Below are positions 2,408 to 24,360 of a DNA stretch of 41,275 bases, piece by piece; position 1 is the first letter of the stretch, and each line of letters begins with the position of its first letter. The stretch covers positions 14,075-55,349 of the forward strand of contig CAZCCY010000002.1 in NCBI GenBank assembly GCA_964497545.1, in the 5' to 3' direction. Made by a program: the position numbers and the translations under genes. The notes under the pieces are model-generated. The model was not told the origin of the DNA. It worked only from the letters and a program-made list of their open reading frames with translations, and did not search any database. The stretch comes from an uncultured Methanosarcinales archaeon (GTDB lineage Archaea; Halobacteriota; Methanosarcinia; Methanosarcinales; CAZCCY01).

Positions 2408-3055
2408 CTATCCTATCAGTTTGATGAGGGCGTTAAATATCCTGCCTATCAACTGCCAGATGGTTAGGTATTCGGTTTCTGCTGGTATATTATTTTTTTC
2501 ATTTACGGTTCTTGGGACCAGGATTTCCTTGGGGATCTCTTTTTTTCCTTCCAGGTATTGTTCTCCGAATTTTCCGTGGCATGCCGGGCATTTCTTGGCC
2601 AGGTCGGTGTGGACTACGTGGGCTCCACCCTGGTGGCAGGAGAGACAGCTTGTGGTATTGGGTTTCATGAGGGTTCCGTTTTCTATTGGGTGACATTTTC
2701 CACATTTTACATTGGGCATCACCCGGTGGAAGTCCTGGGCTGTGAGCTTGTAGGGGTCGTTGCCCTTGTTTCCTACGTGGCAGCGGATGCAGGGCCTTGA
2801 GCCGTGGAGCCGGCTTATTTTTCCAATGTCGATTTCCAGTCCCCTGGGATTCTCAGGTCTGTTACCGTGACAATTATCACAATACTTTTCGATTTTTTTC
2901 GCTCCCTTCTCGCCGAGGAGGTTGTAGTGGCATTGGATGCATAGCCATCCTGGATGGGATGGGTCTGCCAGGCCGTCTTTCACCTCTGGCAGCTCATATG
3001 CATATGCTACAGATGTCAGCAAGAGCAGTGTCAGCAGGGAGAGGAGGGTTTTCAT
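2408..3055 (-). CDS. Secreted hexaheme c-type cytochrome
   Basis: Signal peptide; six CxxCH motifs (CIQCH, CDNCH, CIRCH, CGKCH, CLSCH, CPACH); amphipathic C-terminal helix. Confidence 0.88.
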   Translation of the reverse strand: MKTLLSLLTLLLLTSVAYAYELPEVKDGLADPSHPGWLCIQCHYNLLGEKGAKKIEKYCDNCHGNRPENPRGLEIDIGKISRLHGSRPCIRCHVGNKGNDPYKLTAQDFHRVMPNVKCGKCHPIENGTLMKPNTTSCLSCHQGGAHVVHTDLAKKCPACHGKFGEQYLEGKKEIPKEILVPRTVNEKNNIPAETEYLTIWQLIGRIFNALIKLIG

Positions 3056-3101: not shown

Positions 3102-4715
3102 TCACCTATCTAATTTTAATTTTATTAGAATATAAACTATGGCCAGGGTCAGTGGTAGGCTGAAGCCTGGGGTTTCTTTGGGGGGCTGTGGCTGTTCCGG
3201 GGGTGGCTGTCCTGGCGGGGAAGGGGTGGAGAGAAGTGGGGTTTCTCTTGGTCTCGGGGTTATGGTTAGGGGGTGTTCTTTTCTCAGCACCCGGATGGTT
3301 GCTTTGTTGGTGGTTTTTTTGTGGTAGTAGCGGGATTGGCGGTAGCCAGGGGTGTAGTGGGGTTTGTCTATTATTTCTAGTTGTGCCGGGGGTAGGTTGT
3401 AGGTTCCGGTCTGGTTGAACTGGAGGGTGTAGGTCAGGGTGCGGGGTTCTTCTGGGTAGAGGATGCCGCTCCAGTTGGGGCTTCCGGTTTTGAGGGTGGC
3501 ATTGGATGGTAGGGTGTCTTTGACTGTTACCACTGCGGCCAGGTCTCCTGAGTTTTTCAGGGTCAGGGTGATGGTGGCGGTCTCGCCCTGTGTGAGCTGT
3601 TTTGGGTCTGCTTTTTTGACTGCTGTGACCTCTGGGCCGCTTACTATTATTTTTGGGGTGTTTGACCTGAGGGTGTAGTTCACCCCCTGGAGTTGCCATC
3701 TCAGAGTGGCGGGTGGGGTGAGGATGGTGCCAGGGGGCCTGGGTTTCACCTGGTATGTGATGCTCTTTTGTCCCCCGGGTGGGAGGGTGAGGTTCCAGGT
3801 GAGGGTTGTGTTGCCCTGGAGGTCGGGTGGCAGGGTGTCTGTCAGGGTTGCATGGGGGATGGGGATGCTTCCGTTGTTTCTGGCTGTGATGGTGATGTAT
3901 GCTGTGTCGCCGAGGTAGATTTTCTCGGAGGCGTATTTCACAAGCTCAACGCGGTGGGCGGGTAGGATGTGGGCGGTTGTTTTGTCGGTTTTCTCGTATT
4001 TTTCTCCCAGGACATCTTCGCCCCAGGCGCGGGCTGTAATCAGGTAGCTCTGCCCTGTCAGATTTGAGGGGGCTTTGAACCTTATCTGGTAGATGGGGGA
4101 GGATTCTCCTGCCTCCAGCTCGTGGAGGTCGAAAATAATTCTGTCCCCGGCAAAACCCCATCTGCCCTCTGGCATCTCCCGGAGGGGGAGGGTTGAGTTC
4201 ACCTCTAGGAAGGCCCTTTTTAGGATGGCTCTTCCGGTGTTCACAACCGAGGCATTAACCGTGATGGTGTCACCCGGGGTGTATTCCTCCTGGTCGGTGA
4301 AGACCGTCACCCTTATGCCAGGTCTGCCCCGCACCCTCACCCTGATTTTAACCCAGGTGTCAGCCTCCACAATCCCGCTTCCAAACACAGGCTCGGTGTA
4401 GTTAACCTTGACCAGGGTGATATTCAGGATATTGTTGAAGACCGAGACATCTCCAGCCCCCATCACAGCCTCGAACACCCTATCCCCCTTCTTATCGTAG
4501 ATGGAGATGAAGGCTGATTGGTTTAAAATGTCTGTAGCCTCGATGGTGTAGCCCTCTCTTTCCAGGGTGTCGCCCATGTGGAGTATGGATGTCCGGGGGT
4601 TCACCCATTCAATGTCTGAATACAGCGATTGAACTGGAATCGGCAAGAGCAGGAACAGAACGACAAAGAGGATACACCCTCTCTTTTCAAGCCTCTCTTT
4701 CATTCTCAGGTTCAC
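3102..4715 (-). CDS. Cell-surface protein with DUF11/BatD-like Ig repeats and PGF-CTERM sorting signal
   Basis: Signal peptide, repeated T-ITxTxxNxG...xDTLP modules, Pro-rich linker, C-terminal TPGF + hydrophobic + basic tail (archaeosortase A substrate); start may be 4703. Confidence 0.8.
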   Translation of the reverse strand: MNLRMKERLEKRGCILFVVLFLLLPIPVQSLYSDIEWVNPRTSILHMGDTLEREGYTIEATDILNQSAFISIYDKKGDRVFEAVMGAGDVSVFNNILNITLVKVNYTEPVFGSGIVEADTWVKIRVRVRGRPGIRVTVFTDQEEYTPGDTITVNASVVNTGRAILKRAFLEVNSTLPLREMPEGRWGFAGDRIIFDLHELEAGESSPIYQIRFKAPSNLTGQSYLITARAWGEDVLGEKYEKTDKTTAHILPAHRVELVKYASEKIYLGDTAYITITARNNGSIPIPHATLTDTLPPDLQGNTTLTWNLTLPPGGQKSITYQVKPRPPGTILTPPATLRWQLQGVNYTLRSNTPKIIVSGPEVTAVKKADPKQLTQGETATITLTLKNSGDLAAVVTVKDTLPSNATLKTGSPNWSGILYPEEPRTLTYTLQFNQTGTYNLPPAQLEIIDKPHYTPGYRQSRYYHKKTTNKATIRVLRKEHPLTITPRPRETPLLSTPSPPGQPPPEQPQPPKETPGFSLPLTLAIVYILIKLKLDR

Positions 4716-6882
4716 CCATGTTTATCTGGATTATTCCTCCGCTTGTCACCTCGTCTTCGCTGACAGATACAGATATTAACTGGTTGTTTAATTTCATTTC
4801 GTAGCCTGCTGTGGTGGGGTAGGGTACTGTGAAATTGAAATCTCCTCTGCTGTCAGCTTTTGTGGCCTGGAGGTAGGTGAGTCTCCGGCCCTGGTTTGTC
4901 AGAATCTGGAGGGTCAGGTTCACCTGGCTTCCTGGCAGGGTTTTTCCTTTTATTTTTGCACCTGGGACATACTCGAAGATTTTAATGTAAGGCACAGGCC
5001 TGTTCAATAACGGGTCATAGGCTAAACTGCGGGTCTCGTAGACCAGCCGGTAATGCTGTAGCCCTCTGCCGTCCAGGAGATAGAGCCTTGCATACATTGT
5101 CCTGAGATACCTCCTACCTGGCAGGCCGCTGGGGTCCAGATAGTCCCGGAAGCTCTGGCCCAGGGTGGAGACTATGGCAGGGAAGGTGCCGGAGAGGGTG
5201 AGGATGTTCCCTTCACTGCGAATGTTGAGACCCATCTTGTGGTCCAGGATAACATATCTTGCCCGGTGGCGGTCCATTAACCGGTTTGCGTTTGTCTCGT
5301 TCTCTGAGGTGAGGAACTCTGCAGACTCTTTCAGGCCGAGCTGGAAGTTGTTGGCCACTACCGGCCGTTTTGAGAGGTATTCAATCCAGTGGCCATAGTC
5401 CCACCAGTTCATGACACCATACTCAGGTGGGTAGCCGGGCGTGTTGAAACTGCTGGTGGCCGGGGTGGCTCTTTCCAGCCAGGAGAGGGCTTCCAGCCAG
5501 TCAGAATTGGGCCGGGGAGGGTTTTCTGCAAGAGCGAGGTCTATCTGGAAGCTTGAAACCCCAACAAGGACAAGAACCACCACAGGGATAGCATTAGACC
5601 TTGTGAGCCGGTTGAAAATTGTGAGCTGGTATAGGAGGTATCCTGTGAGGATTGCCAGGTTAACCGAGAGGAGATAGGCAAACCGCCGCTGTAAAATGGC
5701 GAGAGTGAAATTTACAAGCGTCCAGACCAGAAAGAAAACCTCGCTCGAGGATGCCTTTTTCTTGTACAAGAGGAGTGCTAGACCTGCCAGGGCGGTGTAG
5801 AAAGTCAGGGCAAAGGCGTTCCACACTGGTCGCAGGGTGAACTCGCCAAAAAAAGTGTAAAACATGGGTAGAGACTCGCTTATCTGCTGTATCGCCCTGT
5901 CCTGGCGGAGGAGGAAGGAAACACCCCCCTCCCCACTGGAAAGCCAGAGAAAACCAGCCACCCCGAGTATTCCGGCTGCCACGAGATAGAGAGGTCTGGC
6001 CCTGGAAACGGTGTAAATCAGGAGATATGCCAGCAGGTTTACCAGGAGGAAGATCACCTGGAACCAGGAGAGAAAGTTCTGGGAGACCTCTGGAGTCCAG
6101 GGCACCCCGGCAAGATATGCCAGGAGGAGCAGGTCCAGGCTTACCAGGATAGAAATTATGCCTGTAACAGCAAGCGGCCTGGAAGACACACCCCTGCGGG
6201 AGTTAACCGTGAACTGGATGAAAGAATAGACCAGGAGGATGCCAATGAAGATGGGAGCCCCAAGCCAGGTTAAAAGAGAGACAGCAATCAGAACACCGGT
6301 GGAAACCGTGAAAAAGAGGAAACGCCTGTTTTCAGCGAAACTGGCAAGACCAATGTTTTCACCACATTTTAGGGCTTTTAGAAAAGAGAGGTAAATCAAC
6401 ACTGAGAAGAGAACCTCGCTGATATGGTGGTCGGTGAAACCCAGAAACGAGATCTGGACATGGATAGGGGAAAGTGCAAGCACAAAAACCGCGAAAAGAC
6501 TGGCAATCTCACCGAAAATCTCCCGCCCTATAAGATATACCGCGACAAGAGACAGAAGCCCCAGGAGCACCGGGAAATAGGCTCCTACATATTCCACCGT
6601 CCGGGAGCTGGGATTTCCAAGGCCCACCAGGAAAGAGACCGTGGAGATTGCTAGGTCATAGAGTGGCGGCCAGTTAACCGGCGCCCCAGCCGGATAGTTC
6701 ATATAGGAATCTGAGGCCAGCAGTGAAGGAAAAACAGCCACCCTCCGCATGTGATAATAGGGGTCAGCCCCAAGAAAAACAATCCTGTCGCCAGAGAACA
6801 CAGCAGGAAACGTCAAAAGCCTGACACCATAGCCCATAAGAACAATAAGCAGAACAGCCAGAACTTTTTTGTCCCTATCCAT
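4687..6882 (-). CDS. aglB: Oligosaccharyltransferase AglB (STT3 family)
   Basis: DPYYH, DHH, QRRF and WWDYG motifs; multi-TM N-terminus with soluble C-terminal domain. Confidence 0.95.
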   Translation of the reverse strand: MDRDKKVLAVLLIVLMGYGVRLLTFPAVFSGDRIVFLGADPYYHMRRVAVFPSLLASDSYMNYPAGAPVNWPPLYDLAISTVSFLVGLGNPSSRTVEYVGAYFPVLLGLLSLVAVYLIGREIFGEIASLFAVFVLALSPIHVQISFLGFTDHHISEVLFSVLIYLSFLKALKCGENIGLASFAENRRFLFFTVSTGVLIAVSLLTWLGAPIFIGILLVYSFIQFTVNSRRGVSSRPLAVTGIISILVSLDLLLLAYLAGVPWTPEVSQNFLSWFQVIFLLVNLLAYLLIYTVSRARPLYLVAAGILGVAGFLWLSSGEGGVSFLLRQDRAIQQISESLPMFYTFFGEFTLRPVWNAFALTFYTALAGLALLLYKKKASSSEVFFLVWTLVNFTLAILQRRFAYLLSVNLAILTGYLLYQLTIFNRLTRSNAIPVVVLVLVGVSSFQIDLALAENPPRPNSDWLEALSWLERATPATSSFNTPGYPPEYGVMNWWDYGHWIEYLSKRPVVANNFQLGLKESAEFLTSENETNANRLMDRHRARYVILDHKMGLNIRSEGNILTLSGTFPAIVSTLGQSFRDYLDPSGLPGRRYLRTMYARLYLLDGRGLQHYRLVYETRSLAYDPLLNRPVPYIKIFEYVPGAKIKGKTLPGSQVNLTLQILTNQGRRLTYLQATKADSRGDFNFTVPYPTTAGYEMKLNNQLISVSVSEDEVTSGGIIQINMGEPENEREA

Positions 6883-6997
6883 GTCTCAGACTTTCATTTT
6901 AATTTTTATTGTATCTAAACCTATCCTGCCTGCAGGTGTTACAGGGGGTGTCAAACTTAACCTGGAGGAGGAGCGGTGTATTGAATAAAAACAATTT

Positions 6998-8176
6998 TTA
7001 TTTCGATGGAAGTTCTTCCAGAATTGATTGGGCACTGGCTATCAATGTTTCCCTTTCTTCTCTGGTTGCCAGGCGTGCCCCCTCTGCGAGGTTGGAGGTG
7101 ATTACCTGGTATCTTCCCTGGAGGGTCTCTTCGGCTTTTGATTTTATTTTGTCTAGGTTTTCGGGTGTTGTGAGTATGGCTATGGAGGGGCCGGTGTCGA
7201 TGGAGTAATATGCTGGGATGTTTTGTTTTTTAAGTTCATCAGCCATTTGCATCAGGGCGATTGTCTCGGGTTCCCAGGCTATAATACCGCTGGGGCCTGT
7301 CATCATGACAGCACGTAGCATCCTTGTATCTTCTTCTGCAATTCTCCCTATTTCATCGATATTTCTACTTTCGATGGCTTTGATTAGGTCTAATACGCGT
7401 TTGGGTTTCAGTGAGGCCCATTTCTCATAAAAAGGAGATAATAGGGCTTCATCGTGGACTTTCTCTGTTTTCAGTTTCATTGGCATGGGTATCACAGCCA
7501 GTTTCAGGGGGAGGGTGCCGTCGTCGATTCTTACTGCGTAGCATTCCTTGTGTTCTATTTCTGGGTGGGAGAGCCAGAGGGAGATTCCGCCTGTGGCAGA
7601 GCGGGTTGCCGAGCCGCTAAGCAGCCTTGCATAGATTGAGACAAGTCTCTTGTTGTTGCCGATGGCCTCTCCAAAAGCTGCGGTAATCAATGCCTTGGAG
7701 AGTGCACCGCCTCCCGAGGAAGAGGTGCCCAGCCCTTTACCAGTACCCTCTTTAAAATAGTTTTTAGAAACTACAAGTATCTTTGTTTTAATGCCGGTAG
7801 CTATTCTAAACGCATCTACCATCTGCATTACTCTTTCCCTTGCCCTTCCCTCTTCTTTCCTGCCATCTATGATGACAACGTCTTCCTTGAGTCCAGGATC
7901 GAATTTGACGTGGGTGACGGTTTTGAGCGAGTCATGGCAGAGGGATATTGAGGGAAAATAGGCTATTCTTAGATTGTTATCAACCATTCCCAGGTATTTC
8001 TGGATTCCGAGTATGGGGTAGGCGACTGAGGTGGCTTCTCCCTCTACCTCTGTCTTTTTGGGCAGGCTAGGTAATTTTTCGTTCAGGTATCCTTTTTCAC
8101 AGAGGTATCTGATAATCTCTTCTGTCCCGTTCTCGATTCTGGTTATTGTCTCTCTGCTGATGTTTTCTCCTGTCAT
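6998..8176 (-). CDS. Diphosphomevalonate decarboxylase family protein, probably mevalonate 3,5-bisphosphate decarboxylase
   Basis: AYPILGIQKYLG...PSISL, GLGTSSSGG GHMP loop, ARLLSGSATRS, catalytic Asp in SIDTGPS; about 45 aa N-terminal extension; operon context. Confidence 0.75.
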   Translation of the reverse strand: MTGENISRETITRIENGTEEIIRYLCEKGYLNEKLPSLPKKTEVEGEATSVAYPILGIQKYLGMVDNNLRIAYFPSISLCHDSLKTVTHVKFDPGLKEDVVIIDGRKEEGRARERVMQMVDAFRIATGIKTKILVVSKNYFKEGTGKGLGTSSSGGGALSKALITAAFGEAIGNNKRLVSIYARLLSGSATRSATGGISLWLSHPEIEHKECYAVRIDDGTLPLKLAVIPMPMKLKTEKVHDEALLSPFYEKWASLKPKRVLDLIKAIESRNIDEIGRIAEEDTRMLRAVMMTGPSGIIAWEPETIALMQMADELKKQNIPAYYSIDTGPSIAILTTPENLDKIKSKAEETLQGRYQVITSNLAEGARLATREERETLIASAQSILEELPSK

Positions 8177-9075
8177 TAAATTGTATTGAAGTCTGTCCGT
8201 TCTTTTTCAAGGTTTTCAACCAGGGATGGTTGCCCTATCCCGCTTTCACCCAGCTCAACAAGTCTCTTTATCCTCTCAAATATAATGTCCAGTATCCTAT
8301 CAAATGCACTTTCCCCCTCATCAGTGCTTATGACAGGTATGCTATATCTCCTAGCTTGTTCACACTGGTAGTCCTGTATTATCCTGTATATGTCCAGCAC
8401 ATCCAGGAGCCTCCTGGCCCCCCCTTTCAGGTGGGTTTTCCTGACCCTGTTTTTTATTCTCTCCCGATGTATTTCCTCTGAATCCAGCCTCAGCACCACA
8501 GGTATCACGCTAGGGTGATTCAACACCTCGATGTTGAATTGTTGCGGGAGGAAGTGGAGATACTCATAGACCATGGACTCCCCATCCCTTATGCCCCGGT
8601 CCACCACAACTCGCTCCATGGCTCTGTTCATTATTTCTGCCTGGGCCTCAAACCCTTTTATTATATTCTCCTCAGTCAGTTCTCCAAAAAATTTCCAGGA
8701 ACTGTAAACCGAGGAGAAAAAGAAAGGGTTCTCCTTTTTAGAGACAAAAGCCCGCAGCGCAGCTCTGAAAGCATCTCCACCCATGACATTCCCAATTCCC
8801 AGAGAGGTCGCCACCTCTCTCGCCATGGTTGTTTTACCCACTCCAGGCACAGCCGCGAATAAGGGTAATATCGGCTCCCTGAGACGCCCCGACCCTGTCA
8901 GCTCCCGGTATTCCCTGTAGGTCAAATACCTCTCATAATATTTCTCTCCTTTATTTTTCAGCCAGGATTCAAAACCCTGGGGAGATAAACCTTTGAGGGG
9001 GGAAATCAACTCCCCGATTTCCCGGAGGCTCAAACCGGTAGCCAGCAAAAGGCTGTATTCATCATCATATATCAT
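8176..9075 (-). CDS. 2-phosphoglycerate-kinase-like P-loop kinase, probably mevalonate-3-phosphate 5-kinase
   Basis: Walker A-like AVPGVGKT, GGDAFRAALR, EYLHFLP, IQDY motifs of the 2-PG kinase family; translationally coupled between two MVA decarboxylase-family genes. Confidence 0.7.
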   Translation of the reverse strand: MIYDDEYSLLLATGLSLREIGELISPLKGLSPQGFESWLKNKGEKYYERYLTYREYRELTGSGRLREPILPLFAAVPGVGKTTMAREVATSLGIGNVMGGDAFRAALRAFVSKKENPFFFSSVYSSWKFFGELTEENIIKGFEAQAEIMNRAMERVVVDRGIRDGESMVYEYLHFLPQQFNIEVLNHPSVIPVVLRLDSEEIHRERIKNRVRKTHLKGGARRLLDVLDIYRIIQDYQCEQARRYSIPVISTDEGESAFDRILDIIFERIKRLVELGESGIGQPSLVENLEKERTDFNTI

Positions 9076-10027
9076 ATTTTATAAACGGTGGGCCAGCTAC
9101 TTTGTACTTCAGAGCCCTGTATTTTTTCAGCTTCTCCCCAACCTCCTCCTCATCCCGCACAGTACAATAAACATAAACCATGTTCCCCCCAGCAACTGTG
9201 AAATACACCTGAACTCCTGTCTCCCTCATCTCCCGGACACAATTTGTCACCTCATACATAGGGTCTTTTATCACCCTGACACCCACCCATTCCAGGAGGT
9301 AATGGAAATTCATGGCATCCTCCTCAGCTATCCTCATCAACTCCACCAAATCATTTTTTTCCACCGCCCGCAAAGCCCTCGAAACAACCTCCTCCCTCCC
9401 CTCCACCCTCTCCCAGAACTGTGGATGAGTAACAATCTTCTCATGAATCGTGTCAGCACTGTAACGCTCCCCCTCAAAAGGAATCGCAAATATCCTGAAA
9501 TCCCTTAAATCACCCTCACTGGCCACCTGCCTCGCCCTACACCTCTCCCCCACCACCTCTGTAAGAGAAAGCCCCCCCACCATGCTGCGATAGACACTTT
9601 CTGATGCAAACCTCCCTATCTCCATTAATTCATCTTTTTCAATATCCAAACCAAAAAAATCAGAAATAGCCGTAACCAGAGCCGCGGCACCAGCATCAGA
9701 ACTACCAGTAACTATATTATAATTATTAGAATATATCCTGAGACCGCCGTGATAACCAGCTCGACTCCTCAAAATATCGATTGCCCTGAAAATATCTTCC
9801 GACCTTGTACCCGGCACTTTTACCAGCCTCTCCCCATTGATAAAGAACTCAACTTGCCCCCCCTGACCTCCACTTACAACCGTTTCTGTTCTGACAGACT
9901 CTCTATCATCTGTAACAGCCAGACCCATGGTAGTGTAGAAAGGTATCCTCTTCTCTCTATTTTTCAATCCACCCAACAAGAGTACCGGAATAGTCGGATA
10001 CGCAACCGCCGTAGTTCGCTCCTTCAT
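9065..10027 (-). CDS. Mevalonate 3-kinase (Thermoplasma Ta1305-like)
   Basis: AYPTIPVLLLGG, GSSDAGAA, SESVYRS, DTIHEKIV, AEEDAMNFH, TVAGGNMVYV closely follow the remembered Ta1305 sequence; the decarboxylase Asp is absent. Confidence 0.85.
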   Translation of the reverse strand: MKERTTAVAYPTIPVLLLGGLKNREKRIPFYTTMGLAVTDDRESVRTETVVSGGQGGQVEFFINGERLVKVPGTRSEDIFRAIDILRSRAGYHGGLRIYSNNYNIVTGSSDAGAAALVTAISDFFGLDIEKDELMEIGRFASESVYRSMVGGLSLTEVVGERCRARQVASEGDLRDFRIFAIPFEGERYSADTIHEKIVTHPQFWERVEGREEVVSRALRAVEKNDLVELMRIAEEDAMNFHYLLEWVGVRVIKDPMYEVTNCVREMRETGVQVYFTVAGGNMVYVYCTVRDEEEVGEKLKKYRALKYKVAGPPFIKYDI

Positions 10028-10152
10028 AAAAAACCTCCACAGAAACCTCTACCTTTTAAACACCATCCTATTTCAAATTTTTGAACTACCATCCGCCGTT
10101 CAGCCATCCAGTACCATCAATCTTTTTTTAACAATAAATCCTCTGGAATCAC

Positions 10153-11004
10153 TGTATAGTCCCATAAATTTTTTCGCATTAGACTCTTTTCAATATTTTC
10201 AGACATATTTTCACAACCCAAACAGTCTATAACCTATTCCAAATATGGCTTCTGGTGGCATTTTTCTCCAGAATGCCTGTTCTGGTGTCTCAAGTTCCTC
10301 AAAATTCAAACTTCCATGAGGTCTGTTGTTATACCAGTCAACAAACTCTTCAATTTTCACGTTTGTTTGTGGATGTTTTACCCTTACCAGGATTGGTTTA
10401 ATTCCGTATTTCAGTATATGCTGTTTAAATTCGCCATCCCATTCTCTTTTCTCATGGATCCTATGGGCCCCAAATTCACTCCCATGATCCATGATAAGTT
10501 CTCTCAAAGGGCAAATTGACCAGTATCAGTAGTTGTAAAATACATCGCTGCATCATGCGGTTTTCAGTGCTGCATTCACAATGTGATAATTCCGGCCCAG
10601 CATATTGTTTTTAGCATTTTGATTTTACAAGTACTGAATATATCCTGCTGACATACTATGCTTTCGTTCATATCTGACCCATTTCCGTCTCTTCTTTTAT
10701 TCTTGCTCCGAATTTAAAACGGTGGAAAGCTTCCTTGACAATCTCAGCTTCCTCTGGATTGTAAGGTCTCTTTGGTCTGCCAAGATTCAATCCTACTACT
10801 GGTTCTACACCAGTCTCTCTATATTCTTTCCATATCTGTTCCACCCTTCTTCTCGATATTTTCATGTCTTTTGCGATAGCTTCACTCGATTCTCCTTTTT
10901 TCTTATGGTTGATTATATAGCGAATTTTCCTCCTGTTCAGCTTCACACCCTGAACAGAAATTTCAGGGTAATATGGGATGCGAAATTTTTTTTGGGACTA
11001 TATA
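10153..11004 (-). mobile_element. Degraded IS481-family insertion sequence
   Basis: Imperfect ~27 bp terminal inverted repeats (tgtatagtcccataaattttttcgcat / atgcgaaattttttttgggactatata) enclosing transposase fragments; no target duplication seen. Confidence 0.8.
10211..10946 (-). pseudogene. IS481-family transposase pseudogene
   Basis: N-terminal HTH fragment (10668-10946) and integrase-core fragment DHGSEF...HPQTN...YNNRPHGSL (10211-10507) in separate broken ORFs. Confidence 0.85.
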
Positions 11005-12399: not shown

Positions 12400-15300
12400 A
12401 TGATATTGTTTAGATTAGTAGTCAGGACGCTAGCCCTGCTTTTACTTGCATATACCGCATATGCAGGAACCCTCAGCGTGACAGTCCTTGATGCGGATTC
12501 CCTTACACCTGTGAACAATTCAAACGTAAGCTGGACCTCGAATATGAGCAATTTCCACGCGGGCATCTTCGATTTCTTCAATCTCACACCTGCCAACGGC
12601 ACAGTCACCAACAACAGTGTAGACCCCACCGCCACCTATTACATCAAGGTGGTCGGGGGAGACAACGAGAGCACCCCGGCTCTGGACTACGAGCCCTTCC
12701 GTCTTGACCAGGGCGTTAGTTTCAGAAACCTCTACCTAACAAGGTACGACGCCCAGAACATTCCTAACCTGAATATCACCTATGCTGGAGCCAATTCCCT
12801 GTCACTGGAAATCCCGGTTCAGCCCGCCTTTGAGCTTAACATTACCGGTGTTACCAGGGGGCAGAGCGTTAAACTCAGATACAGCGTTTTCGGAGATGCA
12901 GGTTACGGTGACTTCTCCACCCGAGAGGGTGTGGGAGGGCCTGTTGTCCGTTTCAATGCCTCGACCACCTCTGAACTGCTGGCTGTGAAAAACCAGACCG
13001 GCTGGGTGAACTACTCCTGGCTGCCAGAGAACAACATCCAGGGCTTCACCCTCAACCTGACACCCACACTTGAGCAGGGCTACAATGTGACCTTCAACAT
13101 CACCGGAACATATGATGACCTGATAATCGAGGTGAGAAACGCAAGCCAGGACACTGGCATGCCGTTTGACACCAGCCTGATAGCCCTTGTAGAGGGCTAT
13201 AACCGTTCGGGCAGCTTCTTTGAGACGCTCCTGCTTCCAAATGGCACCTACAATTTCCTTTTCCACTCGCGCGGTTACACCGGGACCTGGAATCGGAGCG
13301 TGGAGGTAAACGGCTCAGACATCACAGTGGAAGTCCCACCCCTTCACCCCTCCGGGCCAAGCTACCTCTGGCTTAACCGGGACGAAATAAGAACAGGCGA
13401 AAACCTCACCGGCACCCTCAACAATGGAACGATTAACGGTGGGATTTTCTATCCAGACCGGCTGGACTATGCTATCTACACAGACCAGGGCAGTGAATTT
13501 GTGAAACCAACCCTCCAGGCAAGTGGGACCGTCTCCCAGATGTCAGCCCTGGGAGGCGGGATGCTCAGTTTCACAATCCCAGACCCAGGTCTTCTTCCTG
13601 GGGAGTACAGCCTGATTCTGAACCTGACAAATTCAAGCCTCCAGGCCTACAAGTTCACAGGCTTCAAGTTCGCCGTTGTCAACTCGAGGCTTGAGGTTGA
13701 CCTGAAACCCAGCGCCCGGCCAAACGCCCTGGTAAACGCCTTTGTAATAGCCAAAAACGGCACCTCCAGCATAGGGGGAATGAAGGTCAAACTTGAACTC
13801 ACCTCTCCAGACCACAACTTCTGGACCGTGGTAAAAACCAGTAGCACCACCGACAGCCAGGGTAAAACCACCCTCACCTTCAACGCCCCAAATGCCACCG
13901 GCACCTATTTTGTCAAGCTCACCGGCACAAAACAAGGTTACACAGCCAGGGAGTACCGGATGCTCCGGGTCCAGAACTTCCAGGTGACAGCCATGCCTGA
14001 CAGACCCTCAGTCAGACCCGGTGAAAAGGTGAATATCACCATTACCACCAGCTACTTTAACGGCACACCCCTGGCCAATGCTATCATCAACACCTCGGTT
14101 CACACAGACTTCCAGGACTGGGAGAATGTGACCTACCTCGACGAGACCACCACAGATGACGATGGGAAAGCCCAGATAAACTACACCCCCACCGGCGGTA
14201 GCCAGGGGCTGATGCTGGAGATAACAGCCACCAAAAACAGTGAGAAAGCCTCCACCGAGGTCTTCCTCTTCATCCCACTCTACACCCTCTCGGTGGACAC
14301 AGACAGATTCGAATACGACACCGGAGAAAACGTCAACATCACCATCCAGGTGACCGGTGAAAATGCCACCAACCTCCAGTTCCTCAACGGCTCCATGAAC
14401 TTCAAAGACCCCCACCAGGCAGGAATGACAGCCATGACCAGCGGTAAAAACGCTTTCGCACTCCTCATGAACCCTGAAACAGGGGGCTGGAGCGTGGTTA
14501 ACGTGACCCATCTCGGAAGCGGAGTCTACAATGCCAGCCTCTCCACAGCAGGTCTGTCCCCGGGCTGGTACAATGTCATGGTAATGGTAATGAACTCAGA
14601 GGGTATGCCTGCTGCCGACGGGTTTGCAGACTTCCGGGTTAACGGGGGCCTGGAGGTAGCCTTCCAGAACATGGGAGAGGACATCTTCAAGTCCTACAAG
14701 CTCAACGATGATGTGAATATCACGGTGAAGGTGACAAATAGAAGCACTGGCGAGCCTGTGGGAAACGGGACCCTCAATTACAAGGTTGGCATGCCCTGGG
14801 AGATATTCGCACCCAAGGACTTCAGAGAAGAGATGGGCTTCGCACCCAGACTCGACCGGACAGTAGACCTGGTCAACGGTACAGGCTATGTCAACTTCAC
14901 CCTCAACGCCAGCTTCAAGGAGAACCGGACCATGCCCATGGTAGATGAAAAGCACGTTGGAACCCCGCCACTCATCCTCTATGTCACAGCAACCGTGGAC
15001 AAGGGCACCGGGAGCATGGACATACCCATCTTTCTGAGCGACCTCAACGTGAACCTCACCTCCAATGGTGTCAACTTCAACCGCAGCGGCACGGTCAACT
15101 TCACCATTAATGTCACCGACTCCACCGGCCAGAGCATACCGGCCACCTTCGAGACGCCAGAGGGCACCACCGGTCGTATGGTGGTCTTCGGCCCCCATGG
15201 AGAACACGACATCCCGATCACCTGCCAGACCCCTGGTAACTGTACTGCCAGCTACAATCTCGCCGAGGATGTGGCAGGAGAATACTTTGCCATGGTGGTA

Positions 15301-15939
15301 GCAAGTTCGGGAGATGATGTTGCAGGCAGCGGCGTCCACTTCATGGTCAGCACCTTCAACCTCAACCTGTCCCTGGACAAGACAAGCTACACTGCAGGAG
15401 ACACCATTACAGCCACTGTCAATGCAAGCGAGAACCTTGGCACAGTCGACATCCAGGGAGTCCTCCTGAGCCCCAGCCACATCCCCCTTAACCTGACCAC
15501 CCTGGGTTCAACCAGCCTCCCCAGGAGTATTTCCCTCGTGATTCCCACAACAGCCAAATCCGGCCTCTACACCCTCAAGGTAAAGGTGACGGATCCCACA
15601 GGCAACACTGGAGCCACAGAGAAATCCTTTGAAGTCGAAAATGCAAACCTCAAAGCCAACATCACCATCCTCGACGGGAACAACACTCCCACCTCGTTGT
15701 TCCACCATAACGACACCATCAAATTCCAGGTCAATCTCACAGGCATACCCTCGGTTACCCTCAGGGTGTACAAGCCCCCAAGTGGAGACCTCTTATACGA
15801 GGCAGCAGGCATAACAAGCGGTGTCCAGAATACCACGATACCGCCAGATGCACCCCTGGGCGACTATTTTGTTAGACTTGACACCACTGACACAATAGGT
15901 GTCGCCTCTGCAGGATTCACCGTAGTAGGAGGAGGATGA
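12400..15939 (+). CDS. Large secreted glycoprotein with tandem Ig-like/MG2-like domains
   Basis: Signal peptide; repeated D-x-x-Y-x-x-G-E-x-V-x-I-T beta-sandwich starts; very many N-x-S/T sequons; no C-terminal TM. Confidence 0.75.
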   Translation: MILFRLVVRTLALLLLAYTAYAGTLSVTVLDADSLTPVNNSNVSWTSNMSNFHAGIFDFFNLTPANGTVTNNSVDPTATYYIKVVGGDNESTPALDYEPFRLDQGVSFRNLYLTRYDAQNIPNLNITYAGANSLSLEIPVQPAFELNITGVTRGQSVKLRYSVFGDAGYGDFSTREGVGGPVVRFNASTTSELLAVKNQTGWVNYSWLPENNIQGFTLNLTPTLEQGYNVTFNITGTYDDLIIEVRNASQDTGMPFDTSLIALVEGYNRSGSFFETLLLPNGTYNFLFHSRGYTGTWNRSVEVNGSDITVEVPPLHPSGPSYLWLNRDEIRTGENLTGTLNNGTINGGIFYPDRLDYAIYTDQGSEFVKPTLQASGTVSQMSALGGGMLSFTIPDPGLLPGEYSLILNLTNSSLQAYKFTGFKFAVVNSRLEVDLKPSARPNALVNAFVIAKNGTSSIGGMKVKLELTSPDHNFWTVVKTSSTTDSQGKTTLTFNAPNATGTYFVKLTGTKQGYTAREYRMLRVQNFQVTAMPDRPSVRPGEKVNITITTSYFNGTPLANAIINTSVHTDFQDWENVTYLDETTTDDDGKAQINYTPTGGSQGLMLEITATKNSEKASTEVFLFIPLYTLSVDTDRFEYDTGENVNITIQVTGENATNLQFLNGSMNFKDPHQAGMTAMTSGKNAFALLMNPETGGWSVVNVTHLGSGVYNASLSTAGLSPGWYNVMVMVMNSEGMPAADGFADFRVNGGLEVAFQNMGEDIFKSYKLNDDVNITVKVTNRSTGEPVGNGTLNYKVGMPWEIFAPKDFREEMGFAPRLDRTVDLVNGTGYVNFTLNASFKENRTMPMVDEKHVGTPPLILYVTATVDKGTGSMDIPIFLSDLNVNLTSNGVNFNRSGTVNFTINVTDSTGQSIPATFETPEGTTGRMVVFGPHGEHDIPITCQTPGNCTASYNLAEDVAGEYFAMVVASSGDDVAGSGVHFMVSTFNLNLSLDKTSYTAGDTITATVNASENLGTVDIQGVLLSPSHIPLNLTTLGSTSLPRSISLVIPTTAKSGLYTLKVKVTDPTGNTGATEKSFEVENANLKANITILDGNNTPTSLFHHNDTIKFQVNLTGIPSVTLRVYKPPSGDLLYEAAGITSGVQNTTIPPDAPLGDYFVRLDTTDTIGVASAGFTVVGGG

Positions 15940-15943
15940 AACC

Positions 15944-17332
15944 ATGAAACTCAAAATTTTTCTGGCACTCATACTATTGCTGGCAGCCCTCAGCCTGCCG
16001 GCAGGCGCCACCCTCTCTGCGTCCAGCAGCACCAGTACAAGCGAGGTTACCACCGGTAACAGTTTCACCGTGACCGTGACCGTCTCCAACACCGCAACCA
16101 CCGGCAGCGAGACAGGCGTGACAGTGGGGATAGATCTCACCCAGACCAACGGGGGTCTCAGCCTCGATGCCACAAGCATAAAACTCCAGAACACAACAGA
16201 CTCCATCACCATCACCGCTGGAAACCAGCTAACCCAGACCTGGACGGTCTACACAAGGGCGGCGGGAATCTACACCAACCAGATTAAAATCACCATAAAA
16301 CAGAACAACCAGGAGGTCAGCGGAGTCTCACCCCTCTACGAAAGCGTCACCGTGAAAGACCCTGCAGCCTTCGCAGCCCCCTCCCTGAACCTGAACACCA
16401 CCATACCGGTTAACAGCGAGTTCAACCTGAACATCACCACCCAGAACACCGGAGACTACAGCATCAAAAACGCAACCGTGACAATCACCGACAGCGAAAA
16501 CAGCATAGAACTCCTCTCCTCCCAGAACACCACAGCCCAGACCCTCCAGCCAAACGCCCTCTTCTCCACCTCATTCCACCTCAAATTCACCCAGGCCAGC
16601 ACCCACACCCTGACCATAACCTACAGCTCTGACAACGCTGCCACCACCACCAAAACCACCACCATCACCGTGACAAGCAACACCGGTTCCACCACCAGCA
16701 GTTCCACCACCAGAGGGGGCGGTGGAGGCGGAGGCGGCAGTCTCCCCTCAACAATCCAGAGCAGGATCCTCCAGAAAGGCACAGCCAAATTCACAGGAAC
16801 CGTAGGAGAATACATATCCCAGATAACAATCCCAGGAGCCACCGGAAGCATTAAAGTCAAAATCCTGGACAAAAACCCCACAAAAAAGACACCCAAGGTC
16901 AAGGCCCTGAAATACCTGGAAATCACCCTCTCAGGCAAAGACAAAACCGGTAAAATCACCTTCAAGGTAACCGACAAGGAACTCAAAAAACATGGGCTGG
17001 CCCGCGATAAAATAAGCCTCTACAGATACACAGACAAATGGAACCAGCTACCCACCACCCTCAAAACCACAACACAGGGGGGAGAAAACATCTACGAGGC
17101 AGAAACACCCGGATTCTCCTACTTCATGATAGCAGAAAAAACCACAACACCAAAGCCCACCACCCAGCCAAAAGTCACACCAGAACCATCAACACCAAAA
17201 CCCCAAACAACCACTGAGACACCTAGCGGCGGTGAAAGCAGTAAGCTGCTACCAGCACTGACACCAGCAATAGCAATCCTGACACTGCTCACAGCAGCAT
17301 ACACCTACCACAGAAAAAACAAACAGAAATAA
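15944..17332 (+). CDS. PGF-pre-PGF domain cell-surface protein
   Basis: Signal peptide, Ig-like domains, S/T- and Gly-rich linker, YEAETPGFSYFMI motif, P/T-rich stalk, C-terminal TM + basic tail. Confidence 0.85.
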   Translation: MKLKIFLALILLLAALSLPAGATLSASSSTSTSEVTTGNSFTVTVTVSNTATTGSETGVTVGIDLTQTNGGLSLDATSIKLQNTTDSITITAGNQLTQTWTVYTRAAGIYTNQIKITIKQNNQEVSGVSPLYESVTVKDPAAFAAPSLNLNTTIPVNSEFNLNITTQNTGDYSIKNATVTITDSENSIELLSSQNTTAQTLQPNALFSTSFHLKFTQASTHTLTITYSSDNAATTTKTTTITVTSNTGSTTSSSTTRGGGGGGGGSLPSTIQSRILQKGTAKFTGTVGEYISQITIPGATGSIKVKILDKNPTKKTPKVKALKYLEITLSGKDKTGKITFKVTDKELKKHGLARDKISLYRYTDKWNQLPTTLKTTTQGGENIYEAETPGFSYFMIAEKTTTPKPTTQPKVTPEPSTPKPQTTTETPSGGESSKLLPALTPAIAILTLLTAAYTYHRKNKQK

Positions 17333-22524: not shown

Positions 22525-23337
22525 ATGTTAAGTTATAGAAGATATAAATTGAAAAAAGCAGTATTGTTATTAATAGCGATTTTGATAGTATCGACTTTGG
22601 CACTGGCACATGAAGAGAGCTCGGAAGCAAATGACGCTAAAGAACTCTTTGAAAATGCTGATATGATTATTGTGCCATTCATCGCCAATCCAGGTGTAAC
22701 GATTGATGGAAAAATCGGAGCATCCGAATATAGTGATTACGGACGTTTTCTGGATGAAGACACAGGTATGCAGGTATATCTTGAGCATGACGGCAGTTCC
22801 CTGTATGTTGGTTTGAAAAATCCTGGGAATGGCTGGATTGCCATAGGTTTCGGCAATGAAAATATGAAAAATGGTGCCAATGTGATTATGGGATACATGG
22901 ACAATGGCACTCTGCTCATAAGAGATAGCTATGCATCAGAGATTGACGGTGAAATGGAGCATGAACCGGTTGAAAATCTTGGAGGGAATAACGATATTGT
23001 ATCTGCAAAAGGAATAGAGGATTCCCTTGGAACCACTATAGAGTTCAAGGTTCCCCTGAATTCCAAAGATAAATACGGACGGCATCTTGAACCCGGGAAA
23101 ATTTATCCTATGATCATCGCCTTTAATGACTCTTTTAAGGAATTCAATCCTACTCTTGATGAGGGAGAGATTCATTTCGAGAAGATTTACGTTGCAAGGC
23201 AAAGCGACGATTTGGAGGAAATTGTTGATTTATTTGCCAGGAATATCTCTCCCACGAGCGCGGTGGCTGCAGCAGCATTTCTTGGTATTTCCTTTGCTAT
23301 TCTATTGATAGCATATTATCCATGGAGGAAACATTAA
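22525..23337 (+). CDS. Membrane-anchored DOMON-domain protein
   Basis: Signal peptide (start possibly TTG 22549), LYVGL...GWIAIGFG...M..ANVIMG...RDSY...TTIEF DOMON pattern, late His, C-terminal TM. Confidence 0.8.
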   Translation: MLSYRRYKLKKAVLLLIAILIVSTLALAHEESSEANDAKELFENADMIIVPFIANPGVTIDGKIGASEYSDYGRFLDEDTGMQVYLEHDGSSLYVGLKNPGNGWIAIGFGNENMKNGANVIMGYMDNGTLLIRDSYASEIDGEMEHEPVENLGGNNDIVSAKGIEDSLGTTIEFKVPLNSKDKYGRHLEPGKIYPMIIAFNDSFKEFNPTLDEGEIHFEKIYVARQSDDLEEIVDLFARNISPTSAVAAAAFLGISFAILLIAYYPWRKH

Positions 23338-24360
23338 ATGAAATTTTCAAAAAGAATGTGGCAGGCTCTAGATGAAAGGCTATGTTTTAGCAAACTTTCG
23401 TATCCCATCCCAAAAAATGGGAATAATCTCGGATATTGCCTTGGTGGTATTACCTTATTTAGTTTCTTTATATTGATTATAACAGGTATATATCTTGCCC
23501 AGTTCTATAGCCCGGAAATCGCAGCAGCAAATAGCAGTGTATTGCTTATGAGCGCTGGTTTCACAGGATTTATACGTGGTATACATTACTGGGCTGCTCA
23601 GGCTGTTTTTGTTTTAATTATTCTACATCTATCGAGGATATACATTACAGGTTCATATAAGAAACCGAGGGAGTTTAACTGGCTTGTCGGCGTTGGACTT
23701 TTTGCAATCACACTAGGTTTTATATTCAGCGGTACTATACTTAAATGGGATCAAGAAGCGTATGAAGCCTTCCTGCATAATATAGGGCTAGCAAACCTGC
23801 TTGGAAGCTTAGGCACATGGTTTTCAGCAGCTTTCTCATCCCATATTTTACACCGGATGTACGATATCCACATCGCTATTTTACCCCTCCTTTTTGTACT
23901 GGTGTTCCTTATACATGCATTCTTAGTAAAGATGCTGGGCATATCCCTGTGGCCTGCAAATGGAGAAAACACCAAACATGATACCACTATACCTTTCACA
24001 ACGCATATGAAAAAAGTAACAATTCTTGGATTAATAGTGCTTGGTGCACTAGCTGTGCTCTCAGCAGTTTTTCCACCTCCACTTGGACCTGCACCCATAG
24101 AAGGCATAGAAGTTACAAAACCTCCGTGGATGTTTTTGGGATTATATGCCATAGAAAACAGTCTGGGACTTAAGAGTCTGTTTTATGTGCCTGTATTGTC
24201 CTTTGCTTTACTGGCAGCAGTACCTTTTGTTGATATGCGGCCGGAAAGAAACCCGAGTAAAAGGAAGCTGATGATAGCAGCGCTGATAGTTGCTATGGCA
24301 ATATTGATTTCTCTGATATTGATGGCAGCGCTCACAGCGCCACAGGCACATATAGGCTGA
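23338..24360 (+). CDS. Cytochrome b/b6-like subunit (bc-complex family)
   Basis: YCLGGITL, RGIHYWAA...LHLSR, YKKPREFNW, WDQ, DIH...LIH (four heme His), KPPWM in place of PEWY. Confidence 0.9.
   Translation: MKFSKRMWQALDERLCFSKLSYPIPKNGNNLGYCLGGITLFSFFILIITGIYLAQFYSPEIAAANSSVLLMSAGFTGFIRGIHYWAAQAVFVLIILHLSRIYITGSYKKPREFNWLVGVGLFAITLGFIFSGTILKWDQEAYEAFLHNIGLANLLGSLGTWFSAAFSSHILHRMYDIHIAILPLLFVLVFLIHAFLVKMLGISLWPANGENTKHDTTIPFTTHMKKVTILGLIVLGALAVLSAVFPPPLGPAPIEGIEVTKPPWMFLGLYAIENSLGLKSLFYVPVLSFALLAAVPFVDMRPERNPSKRKLMIAALIVAMAILISLILMAALTAPQAHIG

Follow-up and report, generated by a model that had tools for sequence, protein, structure and literature searches.

The Thermoplasma-type mevalonate pathway was defined in Thermoplasma and has been explained as an adaptation to extreme acid (PMC5177888). 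In Thermoplasmatales it consists of mevalonate 3-kinase (M3K, Ta1305), mevalonate-3-phosphate 5-kinase (M3P5K, Ta0762) and the decarboxylase of mevalonate 3,5-bisphosphate (BMD or MBD, Ta0893). Genes of this pathway have also been described in some Micrarchaeota (PMC6107057; PMC8975820, where a transfer out of Thermoplasmatales is inferred) and, from sites that are not acid, in Aenigmatarchaeota, Altiarchaeota and Heimdallarchaeia (PMC11052028). These earlier cases, metagenome-assembled genomes (MAGs) of DPANN and Asgard archaea, were either symbionts with incomplete pathways or genomes that also held other routes. Ca. Micrarchaeum harzensis is reported to lack HMGR and to rely on lipids of its host (PMC8975820). 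The main text of PMC11052028 mentions no methanogen, anaerobic methanotrophic archaeon (ANME) or member of the Halobacteriota. Our literature search, which did not extend to supplements (e.g., Table S5 of PMC11052028) or subscription journals, detected no paper linking the pathway to ANME or Methanosarcinales. Here, we analyzed a stretch of 41,275 nucleotides (the whole of which is referred to as the window) from the contig CAZCCY010000002.1 of an uncultured archaeon, assembly GCA_964497545.1. On its minus strand it carries three overlapping genes, designated g1, g2 and g3, which are homologous to these three enzymes.

We estimate a probability of about three in four that g1, g2 and g3 constitute a single operon, gained horizontally, which encodes the lower half of the Thermoplasma-type mevalonate pathway and has replaced the canonical route. 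In this scheme, g1 would phosphorylate mevalonate at the 3-OH, g2 would phosphorylate the resulting mevalonate 3-phosphate at the 5-OH, and g3 would strip the 3-phosphate and the carboxyl group without ATP, yielding isopentenyl phosphate; IPK and IDI2 of the host would finish the pathway. The host would have gained the operon horizontally (the closest relatives of the genes are DPANN-type and metagenome sequences), and would have lost mevalonate kinase (MVK) and the aconitase-X phosphomevalonate dehydratase (AcnX) while keeping the UbiD-type decarboxylase (AMPD) and UbiX.

Compared with Thermoplasmatales, the window contains the same three protein families, including an M3K that lacks the catalytic Asp and Lys and a decarboxylase that has the catalytic triad and a probable counterpart of the N-terminal extension, and in both cases IPK is present and MVK is absent. 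However, the window proteins are only ~30–35% identical to those of Thermoplasmatales, g2 is ~95 residues longer, including an N-terminal extension of ~70 residues, and the host has mcrA, a sample label of microbial mat and no record of an acid habitat. The genes here also form one overlapping operon, whereas the 3-kinase gene stood alone in all 18 loci from Thermoplasmat* genomes. The latter observation agreed with the statement, in a first-pass annotation of the window, that the genes are not clustered in Thermoplasma. That statement was too broad for the other two genes: on the Oxyplasma meridianum chromosome (L148/L153) an M3P5K gene (268.8 bits) and a BMD homolog (368.6 bits) are adjacent and co-directional, and thus the pathway genes are not fully dispersed in all Thermoplasmatales.

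The clusters of Aenigmatarchaeota, Iainarchaeota and Micrarchaeota (including Ca. Micrarchaeum A_DKE) are closer in organization, with identical gene order and strand and with the same long types of g2 (~290–305 residues) and g3 (~390–400 residues), but the host of the window is not a DPANN archaeon and has a 1.6-Mb genome with mcrA, HMGS and HMGR. The canonical route of Methanosarcinales (MVK, AcnX, AMPD and IPK) has the same start compound and the same end product, isopentenyl phosphate. IPK, IDI2, AMPD and UbiX are kept here, whereas MVK and AcnX are missing. A Thermoplasma-type replacement of this route requires one more ATP and no [4Fe-4S] dehydratase. The Haloarchaea-type route combines MVK with an ATP-dependent phosphomevalonate decarboxylase (PMD), of which g3 is a homolog; however, there is no MVK here to supply mevalonate 5-phosphate and g3 groups with BMDs. 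The novelty of the locus is limited: published work already covers the pathway in DPANN and Asgard archaea, and compact operons of this kind are frequent among DPANN. The host lineage appears to be new, and so does the way in which the canonical route was replaced, with documented enzyme loss.

The first gene, g1 (9065..10027, 320 residues), is followed by g2 (8176..9075, 299 residues) and g3 (6998..8176, 392 residues). The overlap of g1 and g2 is 11 nucleotides, with the g1 TGA (9065–9067) inside g2 and the g2 ATG at 9075, and the g2 stop and g3 start share one base in TAATG at 8178–8174. Inspection of the sequence showed that the first-pass annotation had these overlaps exactly and had quoted the motifs correctly (TVAGGN without the decarboxylase Asp in g1; SIDTGP and the Lys of QKY in g3). 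Its assignment of the trio to the M3K, M3P5K and BMD groups also agreed with our NCBIfam searches and trees. The trio is not a chance arrangement: the best NCBIfam model for each of the three genes was the Thermoplasma-type enzyme, and the gene order recurs elsewhere.

g1 contains the Pfam domains MVD-like_N (PF22700, 63.3 bits) and M3K_C (PF21433, 58.7 bits), both above the 27-bit cut-off. Its top NCBIfam model is mevalonate-3-kinase (NF040848; 185.9 bits, E 9e-55), and the score is below the equivalog cut-off of 440 bits, which appears to be tuned to close relatives of the characterised enzymes. The closest solved relative is Ta1305 (4rkp, 6.7e-31), and the next one, a decarboxylase, is far behind (6.6e-14). 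When aligned to 2hk2 and 4rkp, the g1 motif FTVAGGN has Ala in place of the catalytic Asp, and Leu occupies the Lys position; this Asp is conserved in DMD, PMD and MBD and absent from M3K (PMC9254496). Of 135 GTDB species outside the phylum that encode a relative, the best 80 were examined. Open reading frames (ORFs) under 300 residues were left out of the g1 and g3 trees and those under 190 residues out of the g2 tree; also left out were L153, which is a duplicate locus, the g2 genes of L020 and L022, which are split, and representatives outside 190–345 residues. g1 fell inside an 82-row M3K-family clade (SH-aLRT 100), apart from the decarboxylases. It branches near the base of the family, and the tree does not settle its position relative to the Thermoplasmatales subclade. 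Its nearest relatives are the metagenome protein P0002 (62% identity) and hot-spring 'Micrarchaeia' MAGs (58%). By homology, g1 is a member of the mevalonate 3-kinase family, and phosphorylation of (R)-mevalonate at the 3-OH is predicted.

g2 matches P-loop kinase models in profile searches, and a Walker A loop (PGVGKTT) and 15 invariant columns are common to it and Thermoplasmatales M3P5K. It scored 143.7 bits (E 6e-42) with the M3P5K model NF008996 versus 135.9 bits with the model of 2-phosphoglycerate kinase (2PGK, NF003259), with which it shares the core of the P-loop kinase superfamily. Both scores are below the respective cut-offs (250 and 343 bits), and g2 aligned only to positions 68–297 of the 2PGK model, the first ~65 positions having no counterpart. 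M3P5K matches of 252–272 bits were found in four of the five Thermoplasmatales genomes searched, whereas sequences above the 2PGK cut-off reached 344–367 bits with their own model and only 100–110 bits with the M3P5K model. In an 85-row quick tree, a split with SH-aLRT support of 98 separated g2 and Thermoplasmatales M3P5Ks from all four sequences passing the 2PGK cut-off. An approximately unbiased (AU) test rejected a clade of g2 with 13 2PGK-type sequences (log-likelihood difference 47, p 0.0019); the grouping with 2PGK had been named beforehand as the outcome that would speak against an M3P5K, and the rows were picked after the tree was seen. A profile search of the PDB with the g2 family returned only P-loop-level matches (adenylate kinases, PSTK), and a single-sequence search nothing useful. 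The nearest g2 relatives occur in Aenigmatarchaeota and Iainarchaeota (57–60% identity), and the gene lies between g1 and g3 here and in 23 of the 80 loci elsewhere. These data place g2 on the M3P5K side and not on the 2PGK side, in line with the earlier reading of the middle gene, a 2-PG-kinase-like P-loop enzyme, as part of this route, and g2 is predicted to phosphorylate mevalonate 3-phosphate.

The best model for g3 is that of BMD (NF040847; 218.2 bits, E 2e-64), with a score below the cut-off of 560 bits, which was passed by only one of five named Thermoplasmatales genomes. Alignment to solved decarboxylases revealed that g3 keeps the Asp/Lys/Arg triad described as invariant for decarboxylation (PMC5177888), namely K60 (QKY, in GIQKYLG), R192 (ATRS) and D327 (YYSIDTGPS); K60 and D327 were invariant in 30 relatives. 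g3 also has ~47 extra N-terminal residues, and the BMD model aligns this extension, from residue 15. An N-terminal extension (helix alpha-1) is described as special to MBD and absent from DMD and PMD (PMC9254496). The motifs KGLG, FPSIS and WLS-P are common to g3 and Picrophilus BMD, and the extension appears to be so as well. In a careful 47-row tree, the BMDs of Acidiplasma, Ferroplasma, Oxyplasma and Thermoplasmataceae shared a 22-row clade with g3 (UFBoot 95, SH-aLRT 95), whereas 'PMD'-annotated Lokiarchaeial proteins and haloarchaeal PMD-like proteins were outside. An 80-row quick tree, for which 34 of the 120 listed matches were taken, agreed, with g3 in a 38-row clade (support 95) and haloarchaeal PMD-like proteins of the same phylum as the outgroup. 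g3 branches near the base of the family and its exact placement is not settled by the tree; the nearest relative is from an NCBI MAG labelled 'Methanosarci...' (55% identity). With regard to PMD (MvaD), g3 is below the cut-off of that model and the genome has no MVK to supply the substrate. Thus, g3 groups with BMD and not with PMD in these trees, and decarboxylation independent of ATP is predicted.

We then considered the remainder of the mevalonate pathway. HMGS (584 bits), HMGR (458), IPK (184.5) and IDI2 (419.5) were detected above cut-off in the genome, and its only MVD-like paralogs are g1 and g3. MVK could not be detected in this genome, the top model match (29 bits) being an archaeal shikimate kinase that scores 281 bits on the shikimate kinase model, and neither could AcnX (20.6 bits versus a cut-off of 31.5). 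Searches of the genome by tblastn with ORFs of at least 110 residues from the AMPD-AcnX loci of four relatives matched only AMPD, a second UbiD paralog and flanking genes. The second UbiD gene, on contig C98, is a menaquinone-pathway decarboxylase (624 bits). For comparison, we used 40 genomes of the same order, from five families, and 400 genomes sampled from the same phylum. Both MVK and AcnX were above cut-off in 39 of the 40 same-order relatives, the sole miss being a genome of 56% completeness, and a UbiD-type AMPD ortholog occurred in 38. The earlier statement that Methanosarcinales use the aconitase-X/UbiD route is therefore borne out by these relatives, and of the genes that the first-pass annotation proposed to search for in the host, AMPD and IPK were found and MVK and phosphomevalonate dehydratase were not.

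Gene context supports these absences. MVK, IPK and IDI2 are adjacent in five of the six relatives fetched, whereas the IPK-IDI2 pair of the host, on a 46-kb contig, is without MVK and has a divergent L10e gene 139 bp upstream. By their coordinates, the two genes AcnX and AMPD are no more than 2 kb apart in 21 of 38 relatives having both; in the host, AMPD is flanked by other genes and UbiX, and AcnX is not beside it. MVK and AcnX are missing here from the places that they conservedly occupy in relatives, and the absences are not assembly gaps. The M3K, M3P5K, BMD and IPK families are thus found in one genome from which MVK is absent, and with the canonical enzymes missing and HMGS, HMGR and IDI2 also present, no route other than the operon can be recognised here that leads from mevalonate to isopentenyl phosphate. 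Most likely, it is the sole such route and was gained horizontally. The retained AMPD and UbiX, which have lost their partner AcnX, could be either a relic or the carriers of a second function.

The host genome (1.6 Mb, 91% complete, 0% contamination) alone represents its family in the collection. It contains mcrA (214 bits), and on the contig of the window, on the AglB side of the operon, are Mmp3 (614 bits), methyl-coenzyme M reductase (MCR) component A2 (859 bits) and methanogenesis marker 15 (739 bits). IleS encoded in the window is 60–64% identical to that of named Ca. Methanoperedens, Methanolobus, Methanosarcina and other Methanosarcinales, and 59–64% identical to that of all 20 same-order relatives compared, versus 46–48% for 'Micrarchaeia' MAGs and 37% for a Thermoplasmata MAG. 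The host is thus a Methanosarcinales-type archaeon with mcrA and not a member of Thermoplasmatota, as had been proposed on first reading (a methanogen or ANME-like organism), and judging from the named IleS matches its order looks like Methanosarcinales. A DPANN host was considered, since the nearest named g1 homologs are from 'Micrarchaeia' and Aenigmatarchaeota, and was ruled out by IleS, mcrA, the methanogenesis markers of the contig and the same-order relatives. ValS, which was compared with 24 named genomes only, gave a mixed signal, with a 'Bathyarchaeia'-labelled MAG as the best match (51%), and was not used as a host marker.

Outside the phylum, g1, g2 and g3 occur in this order on one strand in 23 of the 80 loci, including those of Aenigmatarchaeota, Iainarchaeota, Micrarchaeota and two hot-spring 'Micrarchaeia'. 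Four further loci have all three genes in another arrangement, and in nine g2 is upstream of g1 (eight Heimdallarchaeota-type and one 'Bathyarchaeia'-labelled). Within the same order, g1 homologs were found in none of the 40 relatives (apart from one 21-bit match at chance level), and none of the 400 same-phylum genomes had a close one, the best match outside the host (82 bits) coming from haloarchaeal PMD-like genes. The operon has a GC content of 0.47, compared with 0.529 ± 0.04 for long ORFs of the genome, and a GC skew of +0.44 in g1. Insertion sequence (IS) fragments are located directly upstream of it on the same strand (10211..10946), with a helix-turn-helix (HTH) piece at 10668–10946 (Pfam HTH_28, 30 bits), an integrase-core piece at 10211–10507 (rve_3, 20.8 bits, below cut-off) and a GC content of 0.39–0.40. 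More copies of this IS are present in the same genome on contigs C15, C16, C44 and C20. The absence of close g1 homologs in the order and phylum, the atypical GC and the adjoining IS favor horizontal gain; of the two origins left open by the first-pass annotation, ancestral or horizontal, the former is disfavored.

Several features of other loci should be noted. In ten loci of Micrarchaeota and a Marsarchaeota-labelled MAG (L031, L036, L042, L045, L049, L050, L055, L058, L063 and L074), the operons look mosaic: their short g2 groups with Thermoplasmatales, as does g3 in six of the loci, and g1 (except in L055) groups with other DPANN; four of the ten carry a different, short (~330-residue) decarboxylase type. 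As judged by these groupings, the published derivation of the whole trio from Thermoplasmatales would fit these loci only partly. In L052, from a record titled Methanothrix sp. with a genome of ~0.7 Mb, the operon is near-identical to that of Ca. Micrarchaeum A_DKE and the label looks doubtful. In L004, from a 'Bathyarchaeia' SPRUCE MAG, g1 and g3 are among the nearest relatives of the window genes, g2 is long-branched and basal on the 2PGK side, and ValS is the best match (51%) mentioned above.

A number of observations weigh against the reading of the trio as a horizontally gained Thermoplasma-type operon that replaced the canonical route. All three proteins are far below the NCBIfam equivalog cut-offs (186/440, 144/250 and 218/560 bits) and, as noted, have low identity to the Thermoplasmatales proteins. 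g3 scores nearly as high with the PMD model NF040704 (200.3 bits, below its cut-off of 475), and its closest solved relative is 6n0x (1.3e-30, versus 2.5e-28 for Picrophilus BMD), which we take to be the Anaerolinea phosphomevalonate decarboxylase, although the title of the entry says diphosphomevalonate decarboxylase. With 299 residues, g2 resembles 2PGKs in length, whereas Thermoplasmatales M3P5Ks have ~205. The genome is 9% incomplete and retains, at C29:9051–11357, both AMPD (UbiD type, 46–54% identity to relatives) and UbiX. The composition signal is modest (~1.4 standard deviations in GC and GC3), with only the g1 GC skew being extreme. The link between the operon and IleS crosses the repeated IS, the only place where contigs of the sequencing runs break. 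The nearest relatives also differ by gene (P0002 and 'Micrarchaeia' for g1, Aenigmatarchaeota and Iainarchaeota for g2, the 'Methanosarci...' MAG for g3); thus, they do not point to one donor, and a mosaic operon is possible. Finally, the Thermoplasma-type route consumes one ATP in addition to those of the canonical one, an odd choice for an organism limited in energy.

Some of these points could be explained if the same genes had a different chemistry, in which isopentenyl phosphate would remain the product while the steps leading to it would not follow the order of Thermoplasma. g2 could be a non-homologous mevalonate 5-kinase that acts first, followed by g1 acting on the 3-OH of mevalonate 5-phosphate, or g3 could be an ATP-dependent phosphomevalonate decarboxylase, with g1 having a side or regulatory role. 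The close PMD and BMD scores of g3 (200 and 218 bits), the 6n0x match, the distance of the trio from the equivalog cut-offs and the ~70-residue extension of g2, which has no counterpart in Thermoplasmatales M3P5K, would be consistent with such chemistry. In addition, Lokiarchaeial relatives of g3 with 37–41% identity are read as PMD in PMC11052028. However, g3 grouped at 95/95 with Thermoplasmatales BMDs and not with the Lokiarchaeial or haloarchaeal PMD-like proteins, and has in common with Picrophilus BMD its motifs and, apparently, the N-terminal extension, a feature described as BMD-specific (PMC9254496). g1 lacks Asp and Lys as M3K does, and the co-occurrence of the trio in 27 of the 80 loci argues that all three genes are needed. 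We regard a different chemistry as unlikely. Still less probable, and in our view hardly tenable, is that g2 is a true 2PGK, which makes 2,3-bisphosphoglycerate for cyclic-DPG synthesis and merely lies beside two GHMP genes. Its score with the 2PGK model is close to that with the M3P5K model and its length is that of a 2PGK, but real 2PGKs score much higher on their own model and lower on the M3P5K model, g2 covers only part of the 2PGK model, both the tree split and the AU test are against a 2PGK clade, and homologs of g1 and g3 accompany g2 in 23 + 4 of the 80 loci.

Two other explanations concern the provenance of the operon. It might be an assembly or binning artefact, in which an operon of a DPANN symbiont or another organism was misjoined to the contig of a methane archaeon. 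The DPANN affinity of the nearest named g1 and g2 homologs, the GC content of the operon, which is under the genome mean, and the multi-copy IS with contig breaks right beside it would be expected in this case. We examined depth and linkage in Logan contigs from two runs of a single study, labelled as microbial mat; as the runs share a study and one may be the source sample, they are not wholly independent as support. The shares in runs X3 and X4 are only small. Contigs of both runs bridged the junction between AglB and g3, one X1 contig spanned g3-g2-g1, and in both runs the depth of the operon equaled that of its flanks (~148 and ~550–750), whereas the IS had 2–3 times the depth of the flanks and loose contig ends. 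Moreover, the AglB side of the same contig carries Mmp3, MCR component A2 and marker 15, further copies of the IS family are present in the host genome, the contamination estimate is 0%, and the lack of MVK and AcnX at their syntenic places means that this genome needs another route. An artefact is thus very improbable. Alternatively, the operon could be ancestral: an early archaeon would have passed it down vertically, and every other family of the order would have lost it. Near the base of their families, g1 and g3 take positions that the trees do not settle, and the 'Methanosarci...' MAG has a g3 homolog at 55% identity, so the genes may predate this single genome. However, g1 is absent from all 40 same-order genomes of five families and has no close homolog in 400 genomes of the phylum, the composition is atypical and an IS is adjacent. 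In addition, the MVK-IPK-IDI2 and AcnX-AMPD clusters of relatives have left remnants here (IPK-IDI2 and AMPD-UbiX), which is the pattern of an ancestor that used the canonical route. An ancestral origin is therefore improbable, and we favor horizontal gain, for which DPANN-like archaea are candidate donors.

Other features of the window, and of its operon, are as follows. On the minus strand, GGAGG (10034–10038) is located six bases 5' of the g1 ATG and could serve in ribosome binding, and TTTAAAA (10054–10060) further upstream may act as a TATA-like box. No comparable signals were seen ahead of g2 or g3 on inspection of the sequence, which fits a single transcript with coupled translation. 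Directly after the g3 stop is a T-rich run, TTGTTTTTATT (6984..6994, minus strand), a possible archaeal terminator. The gene for AglB (archaeosortase-A-associated) is located on the g3 side of the operon at 4687–6882. Clusters of single-base differences between the window and run X1 contigs within AglB (5470–5533 and 6583–6598) suggest co-existing strains. At 12400–17332 on the plus strand, a 1179-residue ORF rich in N-x-S/T sequons is followed by a 462-residue ORF without a Pfam match; these two, which lie near AglB, are probably surface or S-layer proteins. The window also contains two multihaem c-type cytochrome genes, and a DOMON protein followed by cytochrome b (1083–1802 and 2408–3055, minus strand; 22525–24360, plus strand). 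Together with the menaquinone-pathway UbiD decarboxylase, the cytochromes and the DOMON/cytochrome b genes suggest extracellular or quinone-linked electron transfer similar to that of Methanoperedens.

It is possible, with the chances evenly balanced in our view, that this organism represents a pathway replacement caught part-way. In this reading, a lipid-autonomous methane archaeon of the Methanosarcinales type, from a habitat without a record of acidity, dropped MVK and AcnX, and with them a route that is cheap in ATP and needs an iron-sulfur dehydratase; it relies wholly on a horizontally acquired, DPANN-like operon of the Thermoplasma type, with UbiD and UbiX left as relics. In that case, the Thermoplasma-type route would not be an adaptation to acid and may be selected for otherwise, e.g., because in a microbial mat it does without a [4Fe-4S] enzyme that is sensitive to oxygen, and DPANN episymbionts would be donors of core lipid metabolism to their hosts. 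In contrast to the earlier symbiont and multi-route MAGs, the upper pathway and IPK/IDI2 are complete here and two canonical enzymes are lost at conserved places; thus, the operon, most likely borrowed, would have to carry the flux. The locus would therefore provide a clean natural test of why the costlier route is used, a clear case of horizontal transfer replacing core lipid-precursor metabolism in a methane-cycling archaeon, and a set of three divergent enzymes, whose source is presumably not an acidophile, that could be compared biochemically with those of Thermoplasma.

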